Below are positions 25,629 to 25,962 of a DNA stretch of 64,000 nt, piece by piece (positions within the stretch are counted from its first letter, which is position 1; every line of letters begins with the position of its first letter). The stretch lies in NCBI RefSeq assembly GCF_053078305.1, contig NZ_CP166879.1, one strand, 5' to 3'. The notes beneath the pieces were generated by a model that saw nothing but the letters and a program-made list of their open reading frames with translations, did no database searches and was not told the origin of the DNA. A program made the position numbers and the translations under genes.

Positions 25629-25691
25629 GCTTGTTTCCTGTTGCGTTACGTGAATCATTATAGCGACTGTTGTGTAATGCGCAACGGTTGT

Positions 25692-25721
25692 TTGACAAAA
25701 ATAGGTATCCGGGATTATATT
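25692..25721 (+). promoter_or_regulatory. Candidate sigma70 promoter (TTGACA-N17-TTATAT) divergent from higBA
   Basis: Consensus -35 hexamer with 17-18 nt spacing to TATATT-like -10. Confidence 0.45.
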
Positions 25722-25726
25722 CTTCG

Positions 25727-25805
25727 CACGGTCGAGTTGACCGTCGGGATTCGAACCCCGGATAGAAACCGCGACAGAGACACGCCGCGAGCGTGTTTTT
25801 TATTG
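25727..25805 (+). ncRNA. Candidate ~80-nt structured leader/sRNA ending in an intrinsic terminator
   Basis: Hairpins acggtc-gagtt-gaccgt and cggg-attcgaac-cccg, then acacgc-cgcga-gcgtgt followed by T6; lies between the promoter and the antirepressor gene. Confidence 0.35.
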
Positions 25806-25962
25806 TCGTATGCACGCGCACATCTGAATTATGGTGGGGCGTATAGGGGAGCTGAAAAGCTCGCCGGTTGGTTTCCCGGTAGTTCGAACCCTGTACGTCT
25901 CACCACCCGATGATTCGAACCTAACGGTGGTGATAGTTTAGAAACCACTCGAGGGCGTCATA

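Follow-up and report, generated by a model that had tools for sequence, protein, structure and literature searches.

The region between the toxin gene higB and an ORF6N antirepressor gene (hereafter ant) was analysed in a 64,000-nucleotide (nt) stretch of contig NZ_CP166879.1 (RefSeq assembly GCF_053078305.1), which we call the window. We put at roughly 85% the probability that this region is an IsrK/C4-type antisense RNA immunity cassette keeping the antirepressor silent. The assignment draws on RNA family memberships, folds, complementarity of short recognition boxes, three-way covariation of these boxes, and the identity of the downstream gene, all of which were computed here. The element is already known in kind; it is a member of a well-described system with its own specificity allele, and the same system goes under the names a1b1-c4-a2b2 in P1 and P7, seqA-CI in P4, and isrK-orf45(STnc1160)-anrP in Gifsy-1. 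Its conservation is high, and it is very probably functional.

Promoter and IsrK-type leader RNA

The initial annotation of this DNA had proposed a TTGACA-N17-TTATAT promoter driving a structured RNA of about 80 nt that ends in an intrinsic terminator, and both proposals were borne out; the annotated N17-TTATAT denotes this promoter with the reading shifted left by one base, and the RNA is the hairpin-rich leader of about 75 nt listed in Table 1. The Rfam family RF01394 (isrK) matched at 25728-25801 with 53.0 bits (E = 6e-10), just above its gathering score of 50, and the matched stretch has the two 5' hairpins and the Rho-independent terminator of that family. Folding of 25728-25803 gave -25.9 kcal/mol (z = -2.2), and the minimum free energy (MFE) structure of the full 258-nt leader retained the IsrK hairpins, the terminator and the C4 fold described below (z = -4.7). 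The earlier reading of a small RNA (sRNA) is therefore consistent with a putative IsrK family member made from that promoter and terminator.

Both RNAfold and the Rfam isrK alignment placed a terminal hairpin followed by U6 at the leader end. A simple terminator scan did not list this terminator, likely because maximal stem extension absorbs the U-run, and RNAfold and the Rfam alignment were relied on instead. The promoter is conserved in PisrK of Gifsy-1, in the phage F765, which carries the Shiga toxin type Stx2a, and in strain RM10042, although the genes upstream of it differ. Neither a LexA-type box nor an inverted-repeat operator was found between higB and the promoter.

A second RNA gene of the C4 family

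Downstream of the terminator, the Rfam family RF01695 (C4) matched at 25827-25910 with 70.1 bits (E = 5e-13; gathering score 45), covering model positions 1-87 in full length; this match makes the region 3' of the terminator a second, separate RNA gene. The isrK and C4 matches also exceeded their curated thresholds when the whole window was scanned with Rfam. The C4 sequence comprises a 16-base-pair (bp) closing stem, hairpin 1 (25849-25862), hairpin 2 (25863-25880) and a 3'-ACC tail, and the stretch 25833-25909 folds at -43.7 kcal/mol with z = -6.2. This value and the E values of the two family matches place the features beyond chance. In agreement with the shape of RF01695, a long closing stem surrounds two hairpins, and both the b' loop and the a' junction strand are unpaired in the MFE fold.

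The 5' end of the C4 sequence shows a conserved AUUAU/GGUGGGG junction (the slash marks the predicted cut), followed by the closing helix, which resembles an acceptor stem, and then by the 3'-ACC. The C4 RNAs of P1 and P7 are cut from a precursor by RNase P, according to Hartmann et al. 1995 as cited in PMC5499578, and the same excision is predicted here by analogy with P1 and P7. One property reminiscent of a transfer RNA (tRNA) would thus be genuine, for another reason than tRNA ancestry, in that an acceptor-like closing helix and a 3'-ACC are present here. By analogy with its characterised relatives, C4 would be the main repressor of the system.

Recognition boxes and their covariation

Three T-loop-like motifs had been pointed out in the initial annotation, and we found them as TTCGAAC on the plus strand at 25750-25756, 25883-25889 and 25914-25920, spanning about 170 nt. 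Including the palindromic overlap at 25882 brings the cassette to four matches. Over the whole window the heptamer shows no excess, with 7 matches against 9.6 expected. To judge from their sequence and positions, the three motifs are the a1, a' and a2 boxes of a C4 system, accompanied by a b1, b' and b2 set (Table 1). A box and its two targets read alike on one strand because the core UUCGAA is its own reverse complement. Residues G25882 to A25888 of a' pair over 7 bp with a2 and equally with a1, while b' pairs over 7 bp with b2 (GAAACCA) and over 6-7 bp with b1 (GAAACC(G)). The arrangement is that of a c4 system: the complementary targets of a' and b', namely a2 and b2, lie in the messenger RNA (mRNA) just 5' of the start codon of the regulated gene, a second target copy (a1 and b1) lies 5' of c4 in the same transcript, and the regulated gene is an antirepressor gene.

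Homologues were collected by searching viral contigs with 14 nt of the C4 5' end, and 56 distinct loci carrying the full module, including P1 and the window, were kept. The boxes of VT2-Sakai were not extracted, its C4 5' stem departing from the seed pattern. Counted over MAFFT alignment columns in the 56 loci, pairing in the C4 stems is 97-100% and compensatory changes occur; in hairpin 1, each of the five pairs has changed on both sides. The a1-a' helix is 93.4% paired, with 6 of its 7 pairs changed on both sides, and neither shuffled sequences nor slid registers came near the observed covariation score. Column-wise pairing of the b', b2 and a2 helices is low (26-70%) because MAFFT misaligns regions of variable length, and is not evidence against pairing.

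We therefore rely on a register-free measure: the longest stretch of Watson-Crick pairs that a box can form with its own target was set against the stretches it forms with targets from loci carrying a different box. The cognate and non-cognate runs averaged 7.05 and 3.72 nt for a'-a2, 8.46 and 4.30 nt for b'-b2, 6.98 and 4.32 nt for a'-a1, and 6.89 and 4.29 nt for b'-b1. This test replaced duplex energies on boxes with flanks, which separated cognate from non-cognate pairs modestly because shared CCGG flanks contribute; RNAduplex energies of whole C4 against whole targets were dominated by the unfolding of conserved stems and carried no information on the pairing.

Thirteen a-box alleles were found (TTCGAAC, TTAGGAAC, TTGACAG, TTGGCGT, GTGGAAA, TTTCCAC, TTCGCAG, TTTGCAC, TTGGAAC, CTGCAAA, GTGAGAA, TTGCAACC and TTAGCAG), together with about 30 b-box alleles, and all three copies of a box agree within each locus. 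In two viral contigs (L035 and L061), b1 is GAGACC and matches b' (GGUUUC) over only 4 nt, with b2 intact. In some lineages, constraint thus seems looser on the upstream target copy than on the downstream one. The regulated gene is interchangeable across the family and may be an ORF6N ant, a Rha-like or Bro-N-like type (both called from N-terminal sequence alone), icd, or a gene for a 76-residue protein.

Table 1. Features of the cassette and its borders (window coordinates)
Feature	Position	Strand	Remarks
higB start	ATG at 25628	-	PHROG 'toxin of TA system' (TA, toxin-antitoxin); cassette lies between higB and the ORF6N antirepressor gene
Sigma-70 promoter, predicted	TTGACA 25692-25697; TATATT 25716-25721	+	18-nt spacer; 11/12 consensus positions
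Expected transcription start	A25728	+	from promoter position
IsrK-type leader sRNA	about 25728-25802	+	hairpin 1 25728-25744, hairpin 2 25745-25760, intrinsic terminator
a1 box UUCGAAC	25750-25756	+	loop of leader hairpin 2; complementary to C4 a'; corresponds to annotated P1 a1
b1 box GAAACC	25765-25770	+	single-stranded between hairpin 2 and terminator; complementary to b' loop; corresponds to annotated P1 b1
Rho-independent terminator	25780-25801	+	ACACGC (25780-25785)/GCGUGU (25791-25796), loop CGCGA, U-run to 25801; ends short IsrK form
36-codon open reading frame, counterpart of Gifsy-1 'orf45'	25831-25941	+	AUG spans predicted RNase P site
C4-type antisense RNA, 75 nt	25833-25907	+	ends set by homology to annotated 77-nt P1 c4
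b' box UUGGUUUC	25868-25875	+	loop of C4 hairpin 2
a' box AGUUCGAA	25881-25888	+	unpaired C4 junction strand; the middle T-loop-like motif
Hairpin presenting a2 in loop, predicted	25900-25933	+	UCACCACC (25900-25907) with GGUGGUGA (25926-25933)
a2 box UUCGAAC	25914-25920	+	in ant mRNA leader
b2 box GAAACCA	25941-25947	+	ends 4 nt 5' of ant Shine-Dalgarno GAGGG (25952-25956)
ORF6N antirepressor gene (ant), Gifsy-1 AnrP homologue	25963-26640	+	phrog_1760 'anti-repressor' E 2e-121; Pfam ORF6N E 2e-18

The antirepressor gene and its leader

The N-terminus of the ORF6N antirepressor aligns with the N-terminus of the product of the gene downstream of the Gifsy-1 cassette. The suggestion in the initial annotation that the upstream RNA regulates or attenuates this gene is broadly right, and control would probably run through the C4-system boxes at the ant leader, as in the characterised relatives.

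A hairpin presenting a2 in its loop is predicted when 25895-25985, corresponding to a processed 3' fragment, is folded alone. It is 93.3% paired in the 56 loci, and loci of the P1 type carry a compensating CCUGCC/GCAGG. This hairpin excludes the base of the C4 closing stem because 25900-25907 is also the 3' strand of that stem, and it could couple C4 processing or folding to target accessibility, to judge from the modelled structures.

A second antirepressor gene lies on the opposite side of higBA at 24265-25002 (phrog_1726, E 7e-95). No IsrK/C4 module accompanies it; the sequence upstream (24198-24221) has merely a terminator-like hairpin of the preceding gene and a weak promoter-like site.

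Proposed mechanism

Transcription, RNase P processing, the direction of regulation and the step affected (ribosome binding, termination or Rho polarity) are taken here from characterised homologues, on the basis of which the cassette could operate as follows. The strong, constitutive-looking promoter would be active in the lysogen and start RNA at about 25728. Many transcripts would end at the terminator (about 25801), giving an IsrK-like RNA of about 75 nt in which a1 occupies a hairpin loop and b1 follows closely. Read-through RNA would hold the C4 fold, and RNase P would cut it before G25833 at the AUUAU/GGUGGGG junction, with 3' trimming to the ACC tail. The mature C4 would expose a' (GUUCGAA) and b' (UGGUUUC) and pair with a2 and b2 5' of the Shine-Dalgarno sequence. 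Translation of the ORF6N antirepressor would thereby be blocked in cis, and equally on a superinfecting phage that shares the specificity, which amounts to immunity. The a1 and b1 copies, carried both by the leader and by free IsrK RNA, would compete for the C4 boxes and thereby modulate read-through or translation; their role could be to favour termination on the nascent leader, to act as a free decoy that relieves repression, or both.

A wider proposal, which we offer tentatively and hold to be rather doubtful as a whole, is that the IsrK-like leader is a dedicated C4 decoy (an 'anti-antisense' RNA), the ratio of terminated leader to processed read-through RNA setting the antirepressor switch. 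The two boxes could also serve as a combinatorial address code, with no fewer than 13 a alleles and about 30 b alleles reassorted between loci, that decides mutual silencing and co-induction among the lambdoid and Stx prophages of one cell, and the palindromic a box would allow C4-C4 or a1-a2 pairing that is unavailable to other alleles.

Alternative explanations and points of doubt

Several observations weigh against the assignment to an IsrK/C4 immunity cassette. The isrK threshold is cleared only narrowly (53 against 50), and RF03163 (c4-a1b1) reaches 20.6 bits at 25715-25764 (E 0.002) against a gathering score of 46.7, although this sub-threshold alignment nevertheless aligns both hairpins correctly. 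The boxes are short, at 7 bp each, and the a box of the present allele is palindromic, which also permits a'-a' and a1-a2 pairing and might make recognition less specific. Simple occlusion of the ribosome site is less obvious here than in relatives where b2 overlaps the Shine-Dalgarno sequence, because 4 nt separate b2 from that sequence and a2 is situated about 45 nt 5' of the start codon. The C4 5'-stem stretch is conserved by construction, the homologue set having been seeded on those 14 nt, and the covariation counts are counts of sequences and not of independent evolutionary events. Transcription, processing and repression at this locus would all follow from homologues, and the published signs among these disagree: the C4 of P1 represses, the IsrK of Gifsy-1 activates in trans, and constitutive orf45, which also yields STnc1160, left toxicity unrelieved (PMC4825925).

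The motifs could instead be functionless leftovers, either of a tRNA gene or of an attachment site linked to one, for example an old integration scar, and the initial annotation had named a remnant of tRNA-associated recombination among its options. GATTCGAAC is indeed the exact reverse complement of the canonical T-arm core GTTCGAATC, the minus strand of 25745-25760 reads CGGGGTTCGAATCCCG, a T-arm look-alike, and the same interval gives a match to a T-arm fragment of transfer-messenger RNA (tmRNA), which at 6 bits is meaningless. Yet ARAGORN finds neither tRNA nor tmRNA in the window, no Rfam tRNA match appears even at E values up to 10, and the surrounding sequence falls instead in two RNA families, isrK and C4, at curated thresholds. 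The heptamer itself is unconserved, being swapped in homologues for 12 other sequences (TTGGCGT, GTGGAAA, TTGACAG and others) at all three positions and always as a matched set, which is the signature of RNA-RNA recognition and not of decay. This leaves the tRNA-remnant idea close to refuted, because the T-loop likeness is an accident of one specificity allele and does not belong to the family; the sRNA and antirepressor control foreseen in the initial annotation stand, its tRNA idea falls, and the C4 gene and the roles of the boxes had escaped it.

It also appears improbable, if somewhat less so, that the functional unit is a small protein gene, namely the 36-codon open reading frame (ORF), with translation coupled to ant and the RNA structure incidental. 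In Gifsy-1, mutation of the first AUG of orf45 or insertion of a stop in it lowers IsrK-dependent anrP translation (PMC4825925), and the orf45 AUG is also present in the window. The frame from the AUG spanning the C4 5' end stays open for at least 100 codons (the span translated) in 34 of the 56 loci, past the downstream start codon (e.g. L010, L033 and L058); C4 may in those loci be nested in a longer potential ORF, much as P4 CI is described as lying inside eta. On the other hand, homologues differ in the length and stop of this frame (8 to 76 codons, or open), the RNA stems beneath it covary, as in hairpin 1, an RNA of about 80 nt processed from the region has been detected in Salmonella (STnc1160), and PMC4825925 itself reports a non-conserved peptide; the ORF is probably not a conserved protein. 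Its stop (TAG, 25939-25941) lies inside b2 and 22 nt 5' of the ant ATG, so the overlapping AUGA coupling of the Gifsy-1 type is absent here.

Two further alternatives keep the RNA functional and move its target. That the chief target of C4 is its own leader, as in P4 and N15, with a1/b1 pairing on the nascent RNA enforcing termination at the leader terminator, is a possibility that we favour less than control at ant and more than the others considered here. A strong intrinsic terminator follows b1 after 9 nt, the covariation of a1/b1 with a'/b' is as tight as that of a2/b2, P4 CI/seqA is described as controlling early termination (PMC10111431; PMC3632133), and the Gifsy-1 authors raise the same option for STnc1160 (PMC4825925). 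However, inspection of the leader for an antiterminator alternative yielded one weak candidate, a 4-bp CGCG/CGCG pairing, and a2/b2 beside the Shine-Dalgarno sequence are equally conserved and would be superfluous if termination were the only output. The termination mode and the ribosome-site mode are compatible with each other.

We consider it unlikely that the IsrK-like RNA is chiefly a trans-acting, Hfq-dependent sRNA on host mRNAs or sRNAs, with antirepressor control secondary, like AgvB and AsxR of enterohaemorrhagic E. coli (EHEC). The Rfam family is named 'isrK Hfq binding RNA', the leader ends in a Rho-independent terminator with a U-tail, and EHEC prophages encode many Hfq-bound sRNAs (PMC4104026, the AgvB paper, which mentions neither antirepressors nor Rfam). 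The variable parts a1 and b1, by contrast, follow the C4 boxes of their own locus and not a fixed host target, and a search confined to the 64-kb window found no further a-plus-b target pair.

Distribution and significance

Stx2a phages such as F765 and ArgO145 share the cassette at 98.4% identity from the -35 hexamer onward, and in them, as in the window, about 4 kb separate it from int/xis. The VT2-Sakai cassette is 82% identical and sits between ninE and roi. Of 5,426 complete E. coli genomes, 664 carry the cassette, at 847 places in all. Among the matches listed, and in the four records inspected (one RefSeq chromosome and three phage records), none has an RNA annotated under it.

When window positions 25560-25700 are compared with other carriers, the gene 5' of the promoter varies, being higBA in the window and in GER2 (L002) and a ParD-family antitoxin in RM10042 (L124); in F765 (L001), the upstream genes are annotated just as hypothetical or predicted proteins. 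The homology breaks around the -35 hexamer, which suggests module exchange there.

The discovery value of this element is small, given that its families are in Rfam, the mechanism has been worked out in P1/P7, P4 and N15, and the 86%-identical Gifsy-1 locus is characterised. Its practical value lies in annotation, as an antirepressor switch that possibly gates prophage induction and Shiga toxin release is invisible in the standard annotations inspected. The specificity found in the window (a = UUCGAAC, b = GAAACCA) is unlike that of Gifsy-1, P1 and most sampled relatives, which bears on the cross-immunity of co-resident prophages.

Other features of the window

Elsewhere in the window, two tandem STnc100 copies (5847-6060 and 6122-6333, minus strand) matched Rfam above the gathering score, as did sRNA-Xcc1, naRNA4 and a leader of the cspA-type thermoregulator class, at the loci 16757-16845 (+), 35857-35935 (+) and 46618-47040 (-). 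An ORF at 27957-28355 encodes a perfect tandem peptide repeat in which PVQ occurs about 7 times, with a 9-bp DNA repeat at about 28140-28200 and matching repeats in all overlapping frames.

Comparison with known systems

The immI region of P1 and P7 (Citron & Schuster 1990; NC_005856) has the same order of promoter, a1, b1, c4, a2, b2 and start codon. In the P1 annotation, promoters P2c4/P1c4 are followed by a1 (48255-48261), b1 (48269-48276), c4 RNA (48343-48419), a2 (48423-48429) and b2 (48452-48459), and then by icd and ant. Spacings agree closely: b1 is offset from a1 by 14 nt in P1 and 15 nt in the window, a2 starts 4 and 7 nt after the c4 3' end, respectively, and b2 starts 33 nt after it in P1 and 34 nt (33-34) in the window. 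Around the C4 5' end, at the RNase P site, 17 nt are identical between the two, and they share the three-helix C4 fold with a' and b' exposed and the downstream antirepressor.

The two also differ in several respects. P1 has icd between c4 and ant, with translation of icd and ant coupled, whereas the window has no icd-like ORF and its antirepressor starts 16 nt after b2; icd is absent from Gifsy-1 too and is thus specific to P1 and not a feature of the RNA family. No C1-type operator is annotated over the window promoter. The P1 boxes differ (a' CUGUCAA, with a longer b' loop), the P1 C4 is 77 nt long against 75 nt here, and P1 is a plasmid prophage, in contrast to the lambdoid Stx-type prophage of the window.

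P4 seqA-CI-seqC resembles the cassette, by its description in papers, in having a short RNA processed from a leader transcript with target copies upstream and downstream of it. The output documented for P4 consists of premature termination of transcription and of control over nested genes, and not of action at the ribosome site of an antirepressor. N15 has a structurally similar system according to PMC3632133 only, and is likened here by description and not by sequence. The literature is divided on the relation of the two RNAs: a 2025 review (PMC12197685) enters IsrK and c4 as unrelated, while Rfam and two other papers treat both as one system. Barquist et al. 2013 (PMC3632133) equate the 'IsrK-C4 immunity system' with P4 seqA/CI and name P1, P7 and N15, and Mageeney et al. 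2023 (PMC10111431) used the Rfam C4 and isrK models to find CI/seqA relatives, for P4 only; according to both papers, these models pick up P4 CI and seqA.

The closest characterised relative is the Gifsy-1 isrK-orf45(STnc1160)-anrP locus, which shows 86% identity with the window between the -35 hexamer and the antirepressor start (25685-25990) and shares the promoter, an identical terminator, the C4 fold and the ORF6N antirepressor family. Rfam matches to isrK, C4 and c4-a1b1 (RF03163, 48.1 bits, passing) occur in the same order 5' of an antirepressor-like gene in Gifsy-1; the region compared with the literature lies at 34131-34214 (-) in L126. When the Gifsy-1 transcript is numbered from the IsrK +1, the coordinates of Hershko-Shalev et al. 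(PMC4825925) are recovered, A107 being the AUG that spans the C4 5' end, and the processed Salmonella RNA STnc1160 maps where C4 is. Their report describes transcripts that in part read through the IsrK terminator, giving short and read-through forms, as well as Hfq binding and activation of antirepressor translation by IsrK in trans. The same 2016 paper terms the region 'orf45' and compares STnc1160 with P4 CI, with P1 c4 and RNase P unmentioned. Of its compensatory pairs G28-C162 and G31-C159, G28 and G31 fall in a1 and C159 and C162 in a', and the 'IsrK-orf45' compensatory mutants are for this reason evidence for a1-a' pairing.

The Gifsy-1 cassette lies beside the Q antiterminator region, whereas that of the window lies near int/xis beside higBA, and the small-ORF stop overlaps the anrP start codon (AUGA) in Gifsy-1 in contrast to the gap described above. 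Sequence differences between the two are concentrated in the boxes and in compensating positions of IsrK hairpin 1. The a box is TTCGAAC in the window and TTGGCGT in Gifsy-1, and b' is UUGGUUUC in the window and UCGGUGAU in Gifsy-1. Because their recognition boxes differ in this way, the window and Gifsy-1 cassettes should be heteroimmune.

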